Positions 8,107 to 16,496 of a stretch of DNA of 64,000 bases are shown here, piece by piece. Position 1 is the first letter of the stretch; the number at the start of each line of letters is the position of its first letter. The position numbers were made by a program, and so were the translations under genes. Source of the stretch: a virus. The notes beneath the pieces are model-generated. The model was not told the origin of the DNA and did not search any database. It saw only the letters and a list, made by a program, of their open reading frames with translations. The stretch lies in IMG/VR virus record IMGVR_UViG_3300021356_000002. One strand, given 5' to 3'.

Positions 8107-8787
8107 TTAGGCGTGAATGTCTTCAATAATCCAATCTTGCATTCCTACAGCCATCTCTGATCTGTCGAGTACAAATGCAACTGTCATACGTAAACCTGTG
8201 TCCCCGTTCCGTGCTGTATGATATACCAGCTTCTCTTCAGGATCTTCGTATGCACCAAAGTAACCAACTTTACATTGCCAGCCTTTTTTATCAGGTATTG
8301 TTACCATTTCTTTCTTTTCATTGTCCCAGTGCTTCCACCAGCCGTCGCCAGTTTCGCTCCAAGTAAACACACAATTGAATGCTGAAGCATTCGCATTGTT
8401 GTGCCAAGAAATATATCCACCTGGCGGATAAACCGCAAATAGAGCATTACGTTTCAAATTGAACGTAGTTTGTATTTTTTGTAAAAACGCTTCCTGTTTT
8501 AGAGAGACTTCAGGAATTTTTGCTTGCGAAACTTTCTCTTTAGAGAAATGCATTTGTCCGATACCAAAGCCATGCGACACAACAACTTCTGGAAATCCAC
8601 CGTGACCCATACCTTGTGACTTAATAAGTTTAAAATATGCATCACCTGTATAATAGTCGGCGTCTTCTTTATTATGTTTGTCGGCTTTTGTCTTTACGAC
8701 AGCCTCGTAATTTTTATCTCTGGTAAACCAAAGTGCATCGTTCAAAATGTCGATAGCAAAATCGTTTAACGGTATGTCTCTCATCAA
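8107..8787 (-). CDS. Putative 2OG-Fe(II) oxygenase-like (DSBH) protein
   Basis: YPPGGYISWHNN...YHTA...RMTVAF pattern; H-x-N in place of the usual H-x-D. Confidence 0.55.
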   Translation of the reverse strand: MMRDIPLNDFAIDILNDALWFTRDKNYEAVVKTKADKHNKEDADYYTGDAYFKLIKSQGMGHGGFPEVVVSHGFGIGQMHFSKEKVSQAKIPEVSLKQEAFLQKIQTTFNLKRNALFAVYPPGGYISWHNNANASAFNCVFTWSETGDGWWKHWDNEKKEMVTIPDKKGWQCKVGYFGAYEDPEEKLVYHTARNGDTGLRMTVAFVLDRSEMAVGMQDWIIEDIHA

Positions 8788-9521
8788 AACTCCATGTGCT
8801 TCGCTTCCGAAGCAGAATAATGTCTAATAACAACAGGCTTCTTGTTGTGAGCATATTTATAGCGCGAGAAATAGTTCCATCTGGCATCATCTTCAAAAAT
8901 GCCCACTTTCAAGTCTTGATACTTTGGCTCTTTGTTTACAAGCCACCAAAGAGAAAACTGATCCCATCGTGACAATGATTTAGGATGAGTTTCATAATCT
9001 GCTTCGCCTTTTTCATTTATTGGCCACCATGTACCAGCATACTGTCGTACAGTGAGATCATACCAATCGTCCATAAACTCACGTACCAATGGATTGCGCA
9101 TGTCATACAGACAGACTGCTCCGCATAGTTCGAACTGACCACCAGGCCATTTTAGTTCTGCATAACAGTAAGAGCGTTCTTCGGGCAGACCAGTGTACAT
9201 CACATCATAGCCATTCAGTTCGTCAAAGACATGTTCAATGTCTTCATGCTCGACCTCAGTGTCGGCGTCAATGTAAAATGTAATATCCCACGGTGATTTT
9301 GCCATACCCCAAAGCTTGGCTCGCTTGTGATCGTTGCAGAAAATTATTTCGTCTGCGAGTCTTCGTCCTCGATCATCAAGAAATCTTTCTTCGCAGACCA
9401 AACAAATATTTGCGTCAGGATAGAAATCCCGAATTGAGTCCATTAAATTACATGCAGAAGCATAAAAGAAACTTCGCCGTGACGCAACGATTACGTAACC
9501 TTTAGTTGGCTCCTGCGTCAT
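8784..9521 (-). CDS. GT-A fold glycosyltransferase (GT8-like)
   Basis: KLWGMAKSPWDITFYIDADT (DxD), WDQFSLW, RWNY...IRHYS; probable start MTQEPTK. Confidence 0.7.
   Translation of the reverse strand: MTQEPTKGYVIVASRRSFFYASACNLMDSIRDFYPDANICLVCEERFLDDRGRRLADEIIFCNDHKRAKLWGMAKSPWDITFYIDADTEVEHEDIEHVFDELNGYDVMYTGLPEERSYCYAELKWPGGQFELCGAVCLYDMRNPLVREFMDDWYDLTVRQYAGTWWPINEKGEADYETHPKSLSRWDQFSLWWLVNKEPKYQDLKVGIFEDDARWNYFSRYKYAHNKKPVVIRHYSASEAKHMEF
8854..8861 (-). promoter_or_regulatory. Possible late promoter TATAAATA inside the GT gene
   Basis: Exact match ~67 nt upstream of the oxygenase-like gene start. Confidence 0.45.
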
Positions 9522-9978
9522 CTTTGTCTCCATAATAGCCCAATTCTTTCGCAATCAAAACTGCACATAGCGCATTCATTTCCACTGCACTTTGCGCTCG
9601 ACGGATTTTGCCACGTAATATACGATCTTCAGAATTTTTAATTTGCTCAATTTCAAAAGCCTGAAGTTTGAGATTAAAAAGTTGCTCTAGTTCAGCAGTC
9701 TTTTTCTTTTGCTCGTGATGTGCGCGTTTTTCTCTGTTCTCGCGCTCTTTTCGCTCTTTGCGTTCAGCGGTATTTTCGTCGATCTTTACGACACCAACTT
9801 TGTCAACCACTTCTTTATAATGAGGGCATTCAGAACCGTCCGGACGAATCTTGCGAAACTCCATTACGTCTTTTTTCTTACCCTTTTGACCTTCAAGCGT
9901 AGTTAGCCTAATACATTTTAGAACTGAGCGATCCTCCGTTTCCCAAAATGCATTATCTAAGTACTCATACTTTGCCAT
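9502..9978 (-). CDS. Hypothetical charged protein directly downstream of the giant fibre gene
   Basis: 158-aa ORF with GGAG SD and a coiled-coil-like centre. Confidence 0.75.
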   Translation of the reverse strand: MAKYEYLDNAFWETEDRSVLKCIRLTTLEGQKGKKKDVMEFRKIRPDGSECPHYKEVVDKVGVVKIDENTAERKERKERENREKRAHHEQKKKTAELEQLFNLKLQAFEIEQIKNSEDRILRGKIRRAQSAVEMNALCAVLIAKELGYYGDKDDAGAN

Positions 9979-9993
9979 AATTTACTCCATATT

Positions 9994-12900
9994 TTAAGCA
10001 ACACGTACGTATAATGTATATGTCTCAATTGTTACCGGTGTTGATGTTAATTTAGCGTCATCCAAATATGCTTCTGCAATGTTAACTACCAAGTTGTAAT
10101 CAGATTCGTAACTAGAACCTTCGTATGGTGAACCGCCATAAACTTCTAAGTCGCCTGTGCCTTCAAACGCACCTATGTATTCTTCAGCATCATCGCCAGT
10201 AATATAAGTGCTGTAGTCTTGAGTCGATTCGAAATCGGAAGAGTAAGTCTCTACATATGCATCACCAGTATAACTGACTTCAATGTTTCTTGTATAGTCT
10301 AATGATATGTAGTCAACCGAAAACTCTTGGGAATACGATTGTTCAGTGTAGTTTGAAAGATACTCGCCAACATAATCTCCTGGTGCACCTTCATAGTCGG
10401 GCGTATAGTCACCAGTATAAACTGTTTCGTATGTCGGAGTATAGTTACCGATATATGCAGTAACATAAACGTCTTGTGCTATGTAGTCTTCAAGGTAATC
10501 AGACTCATAATCTTGTACATATGTTTCAACAAAATCACCAGTGTAGTCAACTTCATAATTGCCTGTGTACGTTACGATAAAGTCGCCTGTATACTGTCCT
10601 TCAAAATTAGAAAGGTAATCGCCTGAGTAATTCGCTTGATAGTTACCAGTGTAATCAGACAAGTAATCGCCAGTATACTGACCTTCAAATATTGATACAA
10701 AATCGCCTGTATACACAGATTGATAGTTACCGATATATGCTTTTACGTAATCGCCAACATATTGACCTTGGAAAATCTGTAAGAAGTCCCCAGTGTAAAT
10801 TGCGACATAATCGCCAGTATAGTCAGACTGATAATTGCCAGTATACTGACCTTCAAAGTCTTGTACGAAGTCTGCTTCATAAGTTTCTAAGAAGTTGCCA
10901 GTGTAGTTTACGTTAAAGTCGCCGACATACTGTCCTTCAAACGTAGCAAGAAAGTCGCCTGTATAGCCTGATGTATAATCGCCTGTGTACGTAGTTTCAT
11001 AGTTTCCTTCGTATTGGCCCGCAAACCCTTGCAAGAAATCGCCAGAGTAAACCGCAGTAAAATCACCAGTGTAGTCTTGCAAGAAGTTTCCAACATACTG
11101 ACCTTCAAACGTGGCAGTGAAGTTACCTTGATAATTTGATACGTAGTTACCAGAGTATTGTGCCTGAGCATATGTCGAAATATAATCACCAGTATAGATG
11201 TTGGTAAAGTCACCCGTGTAAACTTGAGTAAAGTCACCGCCATATACTTGATCAGCATAATTTCCTATGTAGTCACCAGTATATCGAGAAATATAATCGC
11301 CTTGATAATTACCAGTATATTGAACAGCAAAATTGCCAGTATAGTTCGATATGTAATCACCAGTATACTGTTGCGAAACAAAGTTGGCTGTAAAGTCGCC
11401 AGTGTAATCAGAGATATAATCGCCAGTATATGTTGTGACGAAGTTACCAGTGTAGTTTGCTTGAACGTATACTGTAGTATATGTGCCAGTATATGTTGCT
11501 AAAAAATCACCAACATATTGACCCTGGAAAGTCTGAGTAAAGTTTGACTGATACTGAGTGTTAAAATCAGCATTGTATGTCTGTAAGAAATCACCGACGT
11601 ACTGCCCTTGGAATGTGGCTGTGAAACTAGAAACATAGTTGCTGAGATAATTACCAGTATACTGTGCCGCAAAGTTACCAACATATTGTCCCTGGAACGT
11701 AGCAAGAAAATCACCAACATAGTTTCCAGTATAAGCCGCCGTAAAATCGCCAGCATATTGTGAGATATAGTTACCAGTGTATGGTGCAGTAAAGTTGCCG
11801 ACATATTGACCCTGGAAAGTCTGAGTAAAGTCGCCAGTATATTGTTGAGTAAACGTTGCGACATAACCTGATACGTAGTTACCTTGATACTGACCTTGGA
11901 AAGTCTGTAAGAAGTCGCCAACATACTGACCTTGGAACGTACCCAAGAAGTCTCCCACGTAATTCGATACGTAGTTACCCACATAGTTCGCATCAACAAA
12001 GGTCGCTAAGAAATTGCCTTGATAGGTTCCAGTGTAGTTACCCGTATATGTTCTTAAAAAGTTACCTGAGTAGTTTGCATCAACGAACGTCTGAGTGAAG
12101 TTGCCCGTGTATCGTGACACATAGTCTCCCGAGTAACTTGCAGTAAAGTTACCCGTATAGTTTGCATCAACGAACGTCTGGGTAAACGAACTGGTATACG
12201 ATTGATTAATTGTTCTTGTATACTGACCAGTATAGTTACCAGTATAGTTCGCATCAACGAATGTTATGTTGACAGCAGAAACGTAACTACCAACGTACGA
12301 CTGTTGAATCGAGCCAACATAGGTTTGCTGAATCGAGCCAACATATGTTCCTGTATAAGTGCCGCCGCCACCAGTATATCCGCCAGTGTATGTTAATCCA
12401 GTTAAAAGGAATCTTCTTCGAACTTCATAATATCGATAGGTCCCGCTGAAGCTGCCAGTGCCGAATCGGAAATTACCTCTATCATATTCATAGCCTCCTC
12501 GAACAACCGGAGTTGTCAATCCAGGTTCGGTCAGTGCGTAAATGGTGCTAGCCCAACGAAGCTGGTTATTACTTTCTATTCCGCTATTTCGAGGCTGAAA
12601 AGTCCGCCAGTAATATTGAGGAGAACTAAAAGTGAAGAAATACGCTGAATAGGCACCTGGACCAACGTAGCCGCCTTGATAAGAGGTTGCGGCACTTGCA
12701 TAACCACCAAGATAGTTTCCGACATATGTGCCAGTGTAGTTACCGACATATGTGCCTGTGTAAGTCCCTTGATAATTTGCAGAAAACGAACCCGTATACT
12801 GCCCTTGGAACGTAGCGGCAAATGAACCTGTATAACTTTGGTTGATTGTTCTTGTATACTGACCAGTATAGTTACCAACATACTGTCCCTGGAATGTGGC

Positions 12901-15900
12901 TAAGAAGTCGCCCAAATAAGCCTGAATAAAGTTGCCATCATAGTTGGCTAAGAAATCACCAACGTACTGACCCTGGAATGTTCCTAAGAAGTCACCAGTA
13001 TATCGAGCAACAAAGCTACCAGCGTATCCAGATACGTAATCGCCTTGATACTGACCTTGGAACGTAGCAGTAAAGTCGCCTGAGTAAGTTGCTAAAAAGT
13101 TACCAGTATAGTTCGCGTCAACGAACGTCTGTAAGAAGTTGCCTGTATAGTTCGCTTGTGCGTAATTCGAAATGTAATCACCAGCATATGTTACGTTACG
13201 ACCTCCAGTATATTGAGCCGTAAAGTTGCCCACATAGTTCGCATCAACGAACGTTGTAACAAAGTCACCGGTATAACGGGCAAGAAAATCGCCAGAATAT
13301 TGTGCGAGGAAGTTACCAGTGTAAGCCGCACGAATATAATCCGAAGCATAATTACCAGTGTAGTTTGCATCAACGAATGTAGTTAGAAAATCGCCTTGAT
13401 AGTTTGCGGTAAAGTCGCCAGTGTAAGTAGCGGCAAAGTTACCAGTATAGTTGGCTTGCACATAAAGCGAAACGTAGTTACCAGTATATGCCTGCAAGAA
13501 ATTACTCTCGTATTGCGAGATGTAATCGCCTGTATAGTTAGCAGAAATAAATGTGTTTACAAAGTTACCAGTGTACGGCTCTTCGTAAACAGTAACGTAC
13601 TGCCCTTGGAATGTCTGAACAAAATCACCGACATAATTCGAAGTGTAGTTACCAGCGTACGTCGAAAGATAGTTACCAGTGTACTGACCTTCAAACGCTT
13701 GAGTGAAGTTGCCTGAATAAGTAACTAAGAAGTCACCAGTATAGGTAGCTGTGACGTAATTTGATACGTAGTTACCGTCATAGTTGACTTGATAATTGCC
13801 CTGATACTGACCCTCGAAGCCTTGAATGAAATTACCAGTATAATTCTGCGTAAAGTTACCAGTGTATTGAGACTGATAGTTACCTTGATACTGTCCTTCG
13901 AACGTTGCAATAAAGTCGCCAGAATAACTTACAATGAAGTCACCGGTGTATTGTGCTTGAGCGTAGTTTTGTGTAAAGTCGCCAGAGTATTGAGACTGAT
14001 AATTTCCTGTATAGTCAGAAATATAGTTACCGGTGTAAGTCTGTTGCTCATAGGTACCAATATAATCGCCAGAATAGTCTGACTGATAGTTACCCTGATA
14101 TTGAGACTGATAGTTACCAGTGTACTGCGCTTGAGCATAAGTCTCAGTGAAATTGCCAGTATAGATGTCAGTAAAGTCACCGGTATACTGTTCTATGAAA
14201 TTACCACCGTAGACTAGCTGAATATAAGTTTCTAAGAAGTCGCCTGTATAGGGCACTTGATATTCAGAAGCGTATTGTGACTGGTAATTACCAGTATAAT
14301 TTTCTTGTGCGTAAGTGACTGTGTAAGACGTTGAATATGCCTGAAGAAAATCACCCGTATAGGGCTGAGTAAAGTTACCAGCATACTCTGTCTGAATATA
14401 GTTGACAGTAAAATTGCCTTCGTAATTTTCTGTGTAGTCACCAGTGTACACATCGATGTAATTGCCAGTATAGACATCATCGATATAATTCTCTGTAAAG
14501 TTACCGCTGTAGTCGATAACATAATCACCGACATATAGCTCAGTGAAGTTACCTGTATATTCTTCTTCAACATAAGCGGCAACGTAGTTACCAGTGTAGA
14601 TAACTGGCGCATCACCATACAATTCAGCATAGTCTGCGGCATACACTTCAAGCGTATCATCCGCTTCGTAGATAGTTGTATACTGCTCTTCGACTGTAAG
14701 ACCAGAATAGTTAGGAATATATTCTCCTTCGTAACCGCTCTCATAGGATTGTGCGTACGTAAGAAGATAATCACCTATGTAACTTTGTGCGTAGTCGCCG
14801 CTAAACGTACCAATGTACGTAGCCTCATAATCACCAGTATAGGAAGATGAATACGTAGCACCGTATTCGCCAACATAGTTCGATTCATATGTGTCTACGT
14901 AATTTCCGATATAGTCAGGAACATAAGACCCTTGATACTGTGAAGTGTAATTGACATCATACGAATCAACTGAGACATAAGCAGTCTCAGATTCGTATGT
15001 CAAGTTGGTATCAATCGCAGAACCACGTGCTTCCCAAGTTCCCGGAGCAGTCGGTGGACCATCAGCAGAAGATCGAAGTTGATATTTACCAATGCCAGTG
15101 TCTTGAATGACTTGCTTCATTCGCTCGCCGAAGGTCATCTCAACTTCAGCATCACCAAGATGCTTGATTCCTTCAAACTTGTTAGTCACTGCTTGACGTA
15201 AAGGCGAAATGGGCTTAACTACTGCTGGAACAGTTGAGTCTGTCTTAACCCAGATAGAATATGTTACAAGAGATCCATCGCCTCGAGTGTCTTCGAATAC
15301 GTCTGCGATAAACTCTGACCACTGTGCGCCTGGAGATACTGTAGCAAGTCGATACTGACCAGGATAATCGTTCGAAAATATTTTTAAAAGAAGTCGTTGT
15401 ACTACAACGTCGAGTTCTGCATCGCTCATTTCTTTCAAGCCAGCAGGCGTTGCAGTTCTATCCCAGTAAAGTGGATTCTTTTTCAGATCACTGTCGTTGT
15501 CAATTATTGCTACAGCCGTATCGTTCTGATATAACTCATACAGAGTGGCAGAAGTAGTTGGCTTCAACTGTGGCTCTACACGCACAGAGGTTAGTACCTC
15601 AGCATCGCTCGCACCAGCAACACTATTTTGCAGATCAGTAGTAGAACCGTTGATAGTAAAGTTGATTACGCCATCGTCAGTGATGGGAACAGTCCACGTG
15701 ACTTCATAAGAGCCAGTGAGATTGCCATCAGGATAATTTTCCCACGAAACAGAACGACCGTTTGAAGTTGTGTGAGTCGCAGTAGGCGTTGTCGATGTTG
15801 TAATCGTGCCTATTGCCGCAGAACCCGAAATACCCAACTGATATTCGATTTCTTCAAATCCAACACCAGTATTTGTTGCGGTGCCTTGGAGCGTTAGTTC

Positions 15901-16230
15901 AATGGTGTCGCCAACATAGACAACACTAGGCAATGGCGTATAAGAACCAATGGTAACTGTATGCGTTGATCCTGCTGGATCAGATGCGTGAGTAATCGTA
16001 AATGTTCGACTAGTCGTAGTGCCAGGAATAGGACCTATACCAGATGTATAAAAAGTGTCTTCAAACGTGCCAACAAGTTCGGCTGCCGCGTTCGTAGAGA
16101 GCGCAGACAAATCACTTGTTGTCATTTTACTTAAATGAACACCCGCTCGATAAGCCAGATAATCTTCTTCAGAAGTCAGTAGCTCTTTGAACGCACCTTC
16201 ATTTAAGTGTTTGAGAGGACGATAAGACAT
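9994..16230 (-). CDS. Giant (2078 aa) repeat fibre protein with central non-repetitive tip domain
   Basis: ~410-aa N-terminal domain, ~770-aa Y/F-x-G-x arm, ~90-aa unique domain (12395-12660), second ~770-aa arm; late promoter upstream. Confidence 0.8.
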   Translation of the reverse strand: MSYRPLKHLNEGAFKELLTSEEDYLAYRAGVHLSKMTTSDLSALSTNAAAELVGTFEDTFYTSGIGPIPGTTTSRTFTITHASDPAGSTHTVTIGSYTPLPSVVYVGDTIELTLQGTATNTGVGFEEIEYQLGISGSAAIGTITTSTTPTATHTTSNGRSVSWENYPDGNLTGSYEVTWTVPITDDGVINFTINGSTTDLQNSVAGASDAEVLTSVRVEPQLKPTTSATLYELYQNDTAVAIIDNDSDLKKNPLYWDRTATPAGLKEMSDAELDVVVQRLLLKIFSNDYPGQYRLATVSPGAQWSEFIADVFEDTRGDGSLVTYSIWVKTDSTVPAVVKPISPLRQAVTNKFEGIKHLGDAEVEMTFGERMKQVIQDTGIGKYQLRSSADGPPTAPGTWEARGSAIDTNLTYESETAYVSVDSYDVNYTSQYQGSYVPDYIGNYVDTYESNYVGEYGATYSSSYTGDYEATYIGTFSGDYAQSYIGDYLLTYAQSYESGYEGEYIPNYSGLTVEEQYTTIYEADDTLEVYAADYAELYGDAPVIYTGNYVAAYVEEEYTGNFTELYVGDYVIDYSGNFTENYIDDVYTGNYIDVYTGDYTENYEGNFTVNYIQTEYAGNFTQPYTGDFLQAYSTSYTVTYAQENYTGNYQSQYASEYQVPYTGDFLETYIQLVYGGNFIEQYTGDFTDIYTGNFTETYAQAQYTGNYQSQYQGNYQSDYSGDYIGTYEQQTYTGNYISDYTGNYQSQYSGDFTQNYAQAQYTGDFIVSYSGDFIATFEGQYQGNYQSQYTGNFTQNYTGNFIQGFEGQYQGNYQVNYDGNYVSNYVTATYTGDFLVTYSGNFTQAFEGQYTGNYLSTYAGNYTSNYVGDFVQTFQGQYVTVYEEPYTGNFVNTFISANYTGDYISQYESNFLQAYTGNYVSLYVQANYTGNFAATYTGDFTANYQGDFLTTFVDANYTGNYASDYIRAAYTGNFLAQYSGDFLARYTGDFVTTFVDANYVGNFTAQYTGGRNVTYAGDYISNYAQANYTGNFLQTFVDANYTGNFLATYSGDFTATFQGQYQGDYVSGYAGSFVARYTGDFLGTFQGQYVGDFLANYDGNFIQAYLGDFLATFQGQYVGNYTGQYTRTINQSYTGSFAATFQGQYTGSFSANYQGTYTGTYVGNYTGTYVGNYLGGYASAATSYQGGYVGPGAYSAYFFTFSSPQYYWRTFQPRNSGIESNNQLRWASTIYALTEPGLTTPVVRGGYEYDRGNFRFGTGSFSGTYRYYEVRRRFLLTGLTYTGGYTGGGGTYTGTYVGSIQQTYVGSIQQSYVGSYVSAVNITFVDANYTGNYTGQYTRTINQSYTSSFTQTFVDANYTGNFTASYSGDYVSRYTGNFTQTFVDANYSGNFLRTYTGNYTGTYQGNFLATFVDANYVGNYVSNYVGDFLGTFQGQYVGDFLQTFQGQYQGNYVSGYVATFTQQYTGDFTQTFQGQYVGNFTAPYTGNYISQYAGDFTAAYTGNYVGDFLATFQGQYVGNFAAQYTGNYLSNYVSSFTATFQGQYVGDFLQTYNADFNTQYQSNFTQTFQGQYVGDFLATYTGTYTTVYVQANYTGNFVTTYTGDYISDYTGDFTANFVSQQYTGDYISNYTGNFAVQYTGNYQGDYISRYTGDYIGNYADQVYGGDFTQVYTGDFTNIYTGDYISTYAQAQYSGNYVSNYQGNFTATFEGQYVGNFLQDYTGDFTAVYSGDFLQGFAGQYEGNYETTYTGDYTSGYTGDFLATFEGQYVGDFNVNYTGNFLETYEADFVQDFEGQYTGNYQSDYTGDYVAIYTGDFLQIFQGQYVGDYVKAYIGNYQSVYTGDFVSIFEGQYTGDYLSDYTGNYQANYSGDYLSNFEGQYTGDFIVTYTGNYEVDYTGDFVETYVQDYESDYLEDYIAQDVYVTAYIGNYTPTYETVYTGDYTPDYEGAPGDYVGEYLSNYTEQSYSQEFSVDYISLDYTRNIEVSYTGDAYVETYSSDFESTQDYSTYITGDDAEEYIGAFEGTGDLEVYGGSPYEGSSYESDYNLVVNIAEAYLDDAKLTSTPVTIETYTLYVRVA
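10090..14990 (-). repeat. Coding tetrapeptide-period repeat (YTGN/YTGD/FxxT) in two arms
   Basis: Aromatic residue every 4th position, punctuated by FQGQ/FEGQ units and 5-residue FVDAN/YAQAN units. Confidence 0.95.
12209..12877. repeat. 33-bp perfect direct repeat flanking the fibre tip (12209-12241 and 12845-12877)
   Basis: attgttcttgtatactgaccagtatagttacca at both positions; copies 636 nt (212 codons) apart, in frame. Confidence 0.9.
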
Positions 16231-16262: not shown

Positions 16263-16496
16263 TTATTTATAAGATTTGTGGATCAAGTGATTCAGCATAC
16301 TTTTTATTTCATCCAGATCCTTTTCGATAGTCTCTACCTTTTGTTCAAGTGATTGTTTTTGGGCTTTTTCAAGTTTACGGAGGCGTTTGCGCTCTCTGGC
16401 TTGTTCGATCTCCTCAGCATTGGTGTTAATCAATGCGTTGGTTTTCATGTCACGAACTAAGCCAGAGTGCCCCTTGACAGGTACATATCTGCTCAT
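16263..16496 (-). CDS. Conserved small T4-like phage protein
   Basis: VKGHSGLVRD..TNALINTN plus C-terminal coiled coil. Confidence 0.7.
   Translation of the reverse strand: MSRYVPVKGHSGLVRDMKTNALINTNAEEIEQARERKRLRKLEKAQKQSLEQKVETIEKDLDEIKSMLNHLIHKSYK
16264..16271 (-). promoter_or_regulatory. T4-type late promoter TATAAATA
   Basis: Exact match ~34 nt upstream of the fibre ATG (16230). Confidence 0.85.

Follow-up and report, generated by a model that had tools for sequence, protein, structure and literature searches.

Mirror-complementary repeat arms in a putative giant tail fibre of a marine virus suggest an antiparallel hairpin with a sequence-written register

Related fibre architectures and the locus

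Fold-back needles are already known among phage fibres at small scale, in gp37 of T4. The gp37 tip is described as a six-stranded antiparallel needle of three chains, each of which runs out to a head domain and back; the needle measures ~15 nm, comprises the last ~200 residues of an otherwise parallel fibre, and holds seven Fe ions on His motifs (PMC9659904, PMC6957217). Another phage tail protein, gp5C, forms a triple-stranded beta-helix of ~18 strands in which the chains are parallel and intertwined and do not reverse (PMC3004832). The present analysis concerns P0001, a gene at positions 9994..16230 (minus strand) of a 64,000-nucleotide stretch of viral DNA (IMG/VR record IMGVR_UViG_3300021356_000002; the whole stretch analysed is referred to as the window). 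The gene is a single open reading frame (ORF), open for 2078 amino acids (aa), and its product belongs to an unnamed family of marine Uroviricota proteins; it is probably a virion fibre, expressed late, of a marine T4-like (Kyanoviridae-like) myovirus. A third point of reference lies outside the viruses: in SMC and Rad50 proteins the termini of one chain meet, two alpha-helical coiled-coil arms of matched length run antiparallel with a globular domain where the chain turns back, and an irregularity in one arm has its counterpart at the corresponding place in the other.

The chain encoded by P0001 begins with a conserved N-terminal domain (15001..16230, residues 1-410; all features of the gene lie on the minus strand), which is presumed to be the virion attachment end. 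It continues through a first repeat array, the N-arm (12661..15000, residues 411-1190), an Arg-rich central or tip domain of 94 aa with 10 R (12379..12660, residues 1191-1284), and a second repeat array, the C-arm (10261..12378, residues 1285-1990), and closes with a C-terminal tail (9997..10260, residues 1991-2078) that ends in TPVTIETYTLYVRVA (ETYTLYVRVA).

The gp37 tip is the closest solved precedent for these arms. The likeness would be that of a tail fibre of a T4-like myovirus in which the chain turns back at a distal receptor-binding head, with the variable binding part located at this turn. The differences are that about 1,490 of the 2,078 residues of P0001 (about 2,300 in a longer relative, L007) would be hairpin and that the arms lack His and so hold no gp37-type iron motif, with a core that would instead be aromatic (PMC6957217). 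Additionally, the register in P0001 is marked by paired units of four and five residues, and no sequence similarity to gp37 or its Pfam families was detected (Pfam profiles, phmmer against PDB). The likeness to gp5C resides in an eight-residue period with Gly at position 3, in the alternation of inward and outward residues, and in the origin from a phage tail protein (PMC3004832); P0001 carries 102 octads with Gly at position 3, N/D at position 4 and F/Y at position 5. Nothing in gp5C matches the mirror-complementary halves of P0001 or its extra four- or five-residue unit per three octads, and such complementarity is not expected for a purely parallel helix. The likeness to SMC and Rad50 is a functional analogy in the logic of the architecture between unrelated proteins, since those are chromosome proteins with helical arms whereas P0001 would be a virion protein with beta-type repeats.

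Mirror complementarity and compensated change

The basic unit of the arms is an octad Y-x-G-[ND]-[FY]-[TLVI]-[ASQ]-[TNQ], found in 102 clean copies in which Y1 and G3 are invariant. One extra unit follows each third octad, either a four-residue F-[QEA]-G-Q or a five-residue unit of the [FY]-x-x-A-[NQ] type, so that the super-repeats of both arms measure 28 or 29 residues. A preliminary description of this DNA, made from the letters alone, had recognised two arms with an aromatic at every fourth residue on either side of a unique domain, and this layout was confirmed: the spacing between aromatics is four residues in 317 cases and five in 35. In the octad profile the odd positions hold Y, G, F/Y and A/S/Q, and the even positions T, N/D, L/T/V/I and T/N, an alternation that points to a beta character of the arms. 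Among the 1,486 arm residues, His, Cys, Met and Trp are absent, Lys occurs once and Arg ten times, and acidic residues become more frequent toward both outer ends.

The extra units serve as marks of two opposite classes, F.GQ (four residues) and five-residue, and the arms were compared in one ungapped unit-level alignment of 147 units per arm. Read outward from the tip, the N-arm opens with an inner block of four FQGQ marks (12799..13062, residues 1057-1144), opposite which the C-arm carries four FVDAN marks (11986..12261, residues 1324-1415). Seven five-residue marks of the N-arm (13111..13551, residues 894-1040) then face six FQGQ marks (11518..11937, residues 1432-1571) plus one doublet of G-units (units with Gly at position 3), and four F[EQ]GQ marks interspersed with a single five-residue unit (13600..13902, residues 777-877) face four five-residue marks (11158..11469, residues 1588-1691). 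In the outer blocks, eight five-residue marks of the N-arm (13951..14574, residues 553-760) are set against seven F[EQA]GQ marks of the C-arm (10594..11109, residues 1708-1879). The motif runs listed in the preliminary description were all present, in the order and at the places it had given, and the roughly 20 reciprocal pairings of four- with five-residue marks that it proposed were borne out by count, as follows.

All 21 C-arm marks are matched by N-arm marks of the opposite class, and same-class pairs are absent. When super-repeat segments were shuffled 5000 times, the mean number of opposite-class pairs was 6.8 (standard deviation 1.2, maximum 12), which places the observed anticorrelation of motif classes at a z of about 12; the direct, non-mirror orientation yielded no more than 10 opposite-class or 11 same-class pairs. 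When the arms were aligned with gaps as strings of aromatic, Gly and other residues, the z was 8.7 for the mirror orientation versus 3.6 for the direct one. The mirror pattern is thus far above chance. When marks were defined more crudely, as two neighbouring G-units or two neighbouring non-G units, the mirror orientation could not be told from the direct one or from shuffles (17 vs 13.2 +/- 2.3, a value that 160 of 2000 shuffles attained).

The start positions of paired marks, which stand at equal distance from the centre, sum to 2458-2468 over the 21 pairs, and the dyad therefore falls at about residue 1232, inside the central domain; the drift in these sums is the +/-1 residue expected of 4:5 pairs. 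Across the whole alignment, 127 of 146 pairs combine a G-unit with a non-G unit, and the marks are the places where both arms together break the alternation of G and non-G units. Three five-residue units of the N-arm have no F.GQ partner: those at 965 and 825 face extra G-units at 1500 (YTGN YVGD) and 1638 (YTGN YQGD), and the one at 553 sits outside the last C-arm mark. The gaps between marks are mirrored as well, running 28, 28, 28, 21, 13, 29 and onward in the N-arm and 29, 29, 29, 21, 12, 28 and onward in the C-arm, with further irregular gaps of 42/40 and 41/41. Each arm has a single copy of an irregular eight-residue unit, YTRTINQS, and the two copies stand at mirror positions (12835..12858, residues 1125-1132, and 12199..12222, residues 1337-1344); its DNA copies are 81% identical over 75 nucleotides (nt) and form the closest repeat pair in the gene (repeat family D15). 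The repeats within the gene are otherwise 60-80% identical in their DNA and thus old. Since an inverted repeat in DNA cannot yield a protein palindrome, the mirror layout must be kept by selection acting on the protein.

Such a layout has to be weighed against the possibility that the arms do not touch at all, in which case P0001 would be an ordinary parallel fibre or a beta-solenoid with three octads and a connector per turn, and the mirror would stem from some other constraint, such as alternating bend or twist or a symmetric partner. The octad Y-x-G-x-x-x-x-x does recall the octapeptide VxGxxxxx repeated in gp5C, a parallel triple beta-helix (PMC3004832), the period of 28/29 residues equals 3 x 8 + 4/5, and the low-confidence structure model of the arms considered below is all-beta with periodic strands. 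A parallel rod, however, supplies no cause for Gly/non-Gly complementarity about one dyad, which extends to 127 of 146 pairs in P0001 and 280 of 291 in its longer relative. Alternating blocks alone would yield an anticorrelation of classes about a block boundary, but not the matched block sizes (4/4, 7/6+1, 4+1/4+1, 8/7) or the mirrored irregular gaps. The parallel rod also leaves unexplained the changes among relatives described next, namely that the two arms expanded to match, each with its own class of mark, that the centre sits at the midpoint across the family, and that losses of Gly are paired. It is regarded as improbable.

The most extensive of these changes is found in L007, an IMG/VR contig encoding a 3237-aa protein with an N-domain 58% identical to that of P0001 and arms of ~1,170 residues. 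Its mirror alignment contains 40 opposite-class and 0 same-class pairs (null 14.5 +/- 2.6), 280 of its 291 units are complementary, and the gapped test gives a z of 19.1. The inner blocks are the same as in P0001, and the difference lies in the outer ones: 21 five-residue marks have been added in the N-arm, for ~28 in that block, and 19 F.GQ marks in the C-arm, for ~27. These outer blocks read as a matched expansion of ~20 super-repeats or ~570 residues per arm, with the proper class in each. At the other end of the scale, the 2080-aa proteins of L004, L005 and L006 are 85% identical to P0001 and contain no indel in either arm; their arms are ~90% identical to those of P0001, and their central domain 47%. 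The arms of L004 show six gains or losses of Gly, two of which (1010 and 1455, sum 2465) are mirror partners.

In the wider family, a midpoint survey covered 52 members (476-2078 aa) whose layout is a simple two-arm one. In these, the N-arm accounts for a share of 0.53 +/- 0.10 of the total arm length, and 29 of the 52 fall within 0.45-0.55 as compared with 5.2 expected if the centre were placed uniformly; P0001, with arms of 780 and 788 aa as counted in that test, is among the equal-armed members. The mirror z exceeds the direct z in 29 of 44 family proteins (Wilcoxon p 0.0017). Combined, the L007 expansion, the midpoint centre and the paired Gly losses are compensated changes of the sort that the preliminary description had looked for in homologues. 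The Gly/non-Gly unit code itself did not carry over to the distant relatives.

The repetitive nature of the gene, inside which public short-read contigs break, raises the question of whether the pattern could be an artefact of mis-assembly or of a non-coding open frame. The DNA repeats are just 60-80% identical, and hundreds of relatives have conserved ends. An identical collinear 2080-aa relative is found on three IMG/VR contigs from different metagenomes, a further metagenome holds a 99%-identical partial copy, and the contigs of an independent seawater run tile the fibre gene without indels; because of this recurrence and tiling, mis-assembly is unlikely, and an artefact of either kind is very improbable. 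Near-identical DNA is present in salt-marsh, seawater and marine metagenomes. The contigs from public runs were also seen to contain chimeric joints between repeat copies in addition to repeated breaks within the gene, so that automatically assembled relatives may be truncated or collapsed.

Antiparallel pairing and its alternatives

Since the arms are complementary, matched in length and changed in compensated fashion, antiparallel contact between them is to be expected. Physical pairing of the arms in antiparallel orientation, with a register written in the sequence, was the central proposal of the preliminary description, and it is well supported by the permutation and compensation tests, all of which draw on sequence comparisons. 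The most likely form of this pairing is a hairpin within one chain, comparable to a giant gp37 needle, and we assign a probability of roughly 0.6 to this reading.

In the proposed hairpin, the chain would leave the conserved N-terminal attachment domain, run outward along the N-arm, fold into a small variable domain at the tip (about residues 1191-1284), and return along the C-arm, antiparallel to the N-arm and touching it, so that the conserved TYTLYVR tail would end beside the N-domain. Each arm would be a beta-type repeat with an aromatic at every fourth position and Gly, Ala or Ser between aromatics on the same face. With aromatic aligned on aromatic, Gly 3 of one arm would be opposite position 7 (Ala/Ser/Gln) of the other, and at each mark three residues (Q-G-Q) would be opposite four (e.g., V-D-A-N) between aligned aromatics, as in the classic geometry of a beta-bulge. 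The ~21 bulge marks, in blocks that alternate between the arms, would leave one fully complementary register, and for this reason the sequence itself would set how the arms zip. The odd-position face (aromatic, Gly, aromatic, small) would have to be buried, and the hairpin therefore probably oligomerises; by analogy with gp37, a trimer of hairpins with six strands and a buried aromatic face is the probable assembly. The tip would be the receptor-binding, fast-evolving part.

The mirror pattern by itself is equally compatible with pairing between chains, in which two chains, or two trimers, would lie head to tail about the dyad in the central domain, giving a rod of double length with an N-domain and a C-tail at each end and the variable domains in the middle. 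Such a rod predicts identical mirror complementarity, equal arms and compensated expansions. The TYTLYVR-type C-terminal motif co-occurs with the N-domain in ~100 of the 112 relatives of at least 450 aa, and this co-occurrence fits a contact in trans as well. The interchain rod, however, places the most variable part of the protein, with 47% versus ~90% identity and with swapped domains, at mid-rod, which would be unusual for a receptor-binding module. To our knowledge, phage fibres are polar, with one attachment end, a variable distal tip and a conserved proximal part, in disagreement with a rod that has an attachment domain at either end; the gp37 precedent, too, is intrachain. The conserved and co-occurring termini, the centre as the fastest-evolving and most exchanged part, and the polar rule of phage fibres are the reasons for which the intrachain hairpin is favoured, and pairing between chains is considered a less probable, though appreciable, alternative.

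In addition to the equal fit of the interchain rod, several observations weigh against the intrachain hairpin. The sole fold of the arms, an AlphaFold2 (AF2) single-sequence model of the tip-centred residues 933-1532 (600 aa), had a mean predicted local distance difference test score (pLDDT) of 44.6 and a predicted template modelling score of 0.35, was unusable and was set aside. Within unit classes, covariation between the arms (mutual information of mirror positions) is weak. For about one in three family members, the mirror orientation scores no better than the direct one, and under a crude segmentation some members have unequal arms (P0011 404/333, P0139 324/425, P0125 233/157 and P0223 323/121). 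The homologue in Phage C48C1 carries many globular inserts in its C-terminal half only. Finally, the super-repeat of 24+4/5 residues (three octads and a connector) also fits a three-sided coil: the fibre would be ~250 nm long if fully extended as a ribbon (at ~0.33 nm per residue) and may be much shorter, tens of nm, if the super-repeat forms such a coil.

A broader proposition is that P0001 represents a new fibrous protein fold, widespread among marine myoviruses, in the form of an antiparallel 'aromatic zipper' hairpin that sets its own register, with arms of 780 to ~1,200 residues, possibly hundreds of nm in length, in which a barcode of 4:5 beta-bulges and Gly/non-Gly complementarity fix one register, matched expansions tune the length, and a receptor-binding cassette lies mid-gene. 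This proposition is advanced tentatively, at slightly below even odds. A fibre that is nearly all hairpin, the repeat of P0001, a mirror-complementary register code and a change of length by matched expansion of two arrays were not found in Pfam, PHROGs, PDB or the literature searched. If the arms pair as proposed, P0001 would be the longest known fold-back fibre and a rare case of a fibrous assembly whose register is legible in its sequence, written as a palindrome of complementary units at the protein level. The receptor-binding module would then lie in the middle of the gene rather than at its C-terminal end, which would change how such genes are annotated and would bear on the prediction of host range in abundant marine cyanophage-like viruses. 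The family, with hundreds of members of which none is named, would also offer a natural setting in which to ask how long beta-fibres keep from pairing out of register and how they evolve in length by matched expansions. For design, it would suggest a rule for long, register-specific beta-ribbons, consisting of an aromatic ladder, Gly opposite non-Gly, and periodic bulges.

Relatives, searches and genomic setting

Searches of P0001 against Pfam profiles gave no match at E up to 1 apart from noise, PHROG profiles gave no family above threshold, and phmmer against all PDB chains gave nothing below E 0.6. A profile of the 28-residue super-repeat had no match among PDB sequences at E up to 10, the ESM Atlas returned nothing usable, and the literature search found no description of a protein of this type or of the mirror pattern. 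The N-domain, which is 46-61% identical across full-length relatives, was modelled by AF2 with an alignment of relatives at a pLDDT of 92.9. Within it, an immunoglobulin-like (Ig-like) beta-sandwich (15565..15972, residues 87-222) is an insert specific to the subfamily, and it resembles the Ig-like domains of pilins (VIA-align Z 8.7, root-mean-square deviation 3.0, 122 residues aligned) by way of a generic fold. Matches of the N-domain model in PDB and BFVD (Foldseek, VIA-align) were limited to this insert, and the conserved core (1-60, 225-410) was barely covered. Other subfamilies mostly lack the Ig-like or pilin-like insert, and their matches to P0001 begin near residue 225.

Relatives of the N-domain number 296 at E up to 1e-3 and 79 at E up to 1e-30 in a set of 1.84 billion representative proteins; they span about 200 to 4046 aa and are all unnamed. 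The middle region of family members is hypervariable in length, sequence and domain content, with diverse globular inserts. In P0018 the block layout is mirrored, with four-residue units at ~417-614 and ~2272-2470 and 12-mers at ~619-750 and ~2121-2272; a pairing of Arg against Gly in this protein was rejected because it holds in just one of three equally good registers. A mirror noted by eye in P0110 was likewise dropped, as the gapped test was not significant. P0020 and P0049 have the same repeat arms, but the usual N-terminal region is replaced by Pfam domains of the FG-GAP-like (PF14312) and LamG-like (PF13385) types, an architecture that suggests modular exchange of the non-repeat parts.

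The sole relative in the cultured-phage collection is WJE88074.1 of Phage C48C1 (OQ984149, Kyanoviridae), a protein of 3347 aa annotated as hypothetical, which tblastn aligned to 76% of P0001 with 27% identity. It shares with P0001 the ETYTLYVRVA end, the place after a VrlC-like gene and the same three downstream genes, and differs from it in having R-rich 12-residue repeats and no evident simple two-arm mirror code. The C-terminal half of C48C1-type relatives (L001 8725-18768; P0022) resembles beads on a string, with at least 7 globular inserts of 110-215 aa between short stretches of FxGE/YxRx repeats; around residues 2000-2130 one insert is present as a near-exact duplicate. Matches to a 'structural protein' of Synechococcus phage S-RIM2 were due to low complexity (TGNVTGN) and were discarded as non-relatives.

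Upstream of the fibre gene in the window are genes for a VrlC-like protein of 1822 aa (phrog_358, E 8e-293) and baseplate wedge subunits (phrog_438, phrog_219) and a hub/lysozyme gene, and several tail-fibre-like genes lie downstream; by sequence similarity, these neighbours place P0001 in the tail module of a T4-like myovirus. The motif TATAAATA (16264..16271, minus strand) is located 33 nt upstream of the fibre ATG. The window contains 7 copies of it against 2.4 expected, a number that no shuffle reached, and the copies are predicted T4-type late promoters. They were mostly seen just upstream of minus-strand structural genes (8094, 8854, 16264, 23369, 25956 and 34434).

Three downstream genes (8107..9978, minus strand) encode proteins of 158, 256 and 226 aa and travel with the fibre gene. 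The products are 39, 61 and 40% identical to those of three syntenic genes after the C48C1 homologue, and the same order is found in L005. None of the three proteins had a sequence match in Pfam, PHROG or PDB, and they may be factors for assembly or modification of the fibre. A YIDADTEVE (DxD-like) motif was noted in the 256-aa protein.

Between the VrlC-like gene and the fibre gene lies a charged ORF of 77 aa (16264-16496, minus strand), whose start shares a TAATG overlap with the stop codon of the VrlC-like gene and whose end overlaps TATAAATA. C48C1 and S-RIM2 have a 'virion structural protein' of ~76 aa directly after the VrlC homologue, which resembles the 77-aa ORF in position and size.

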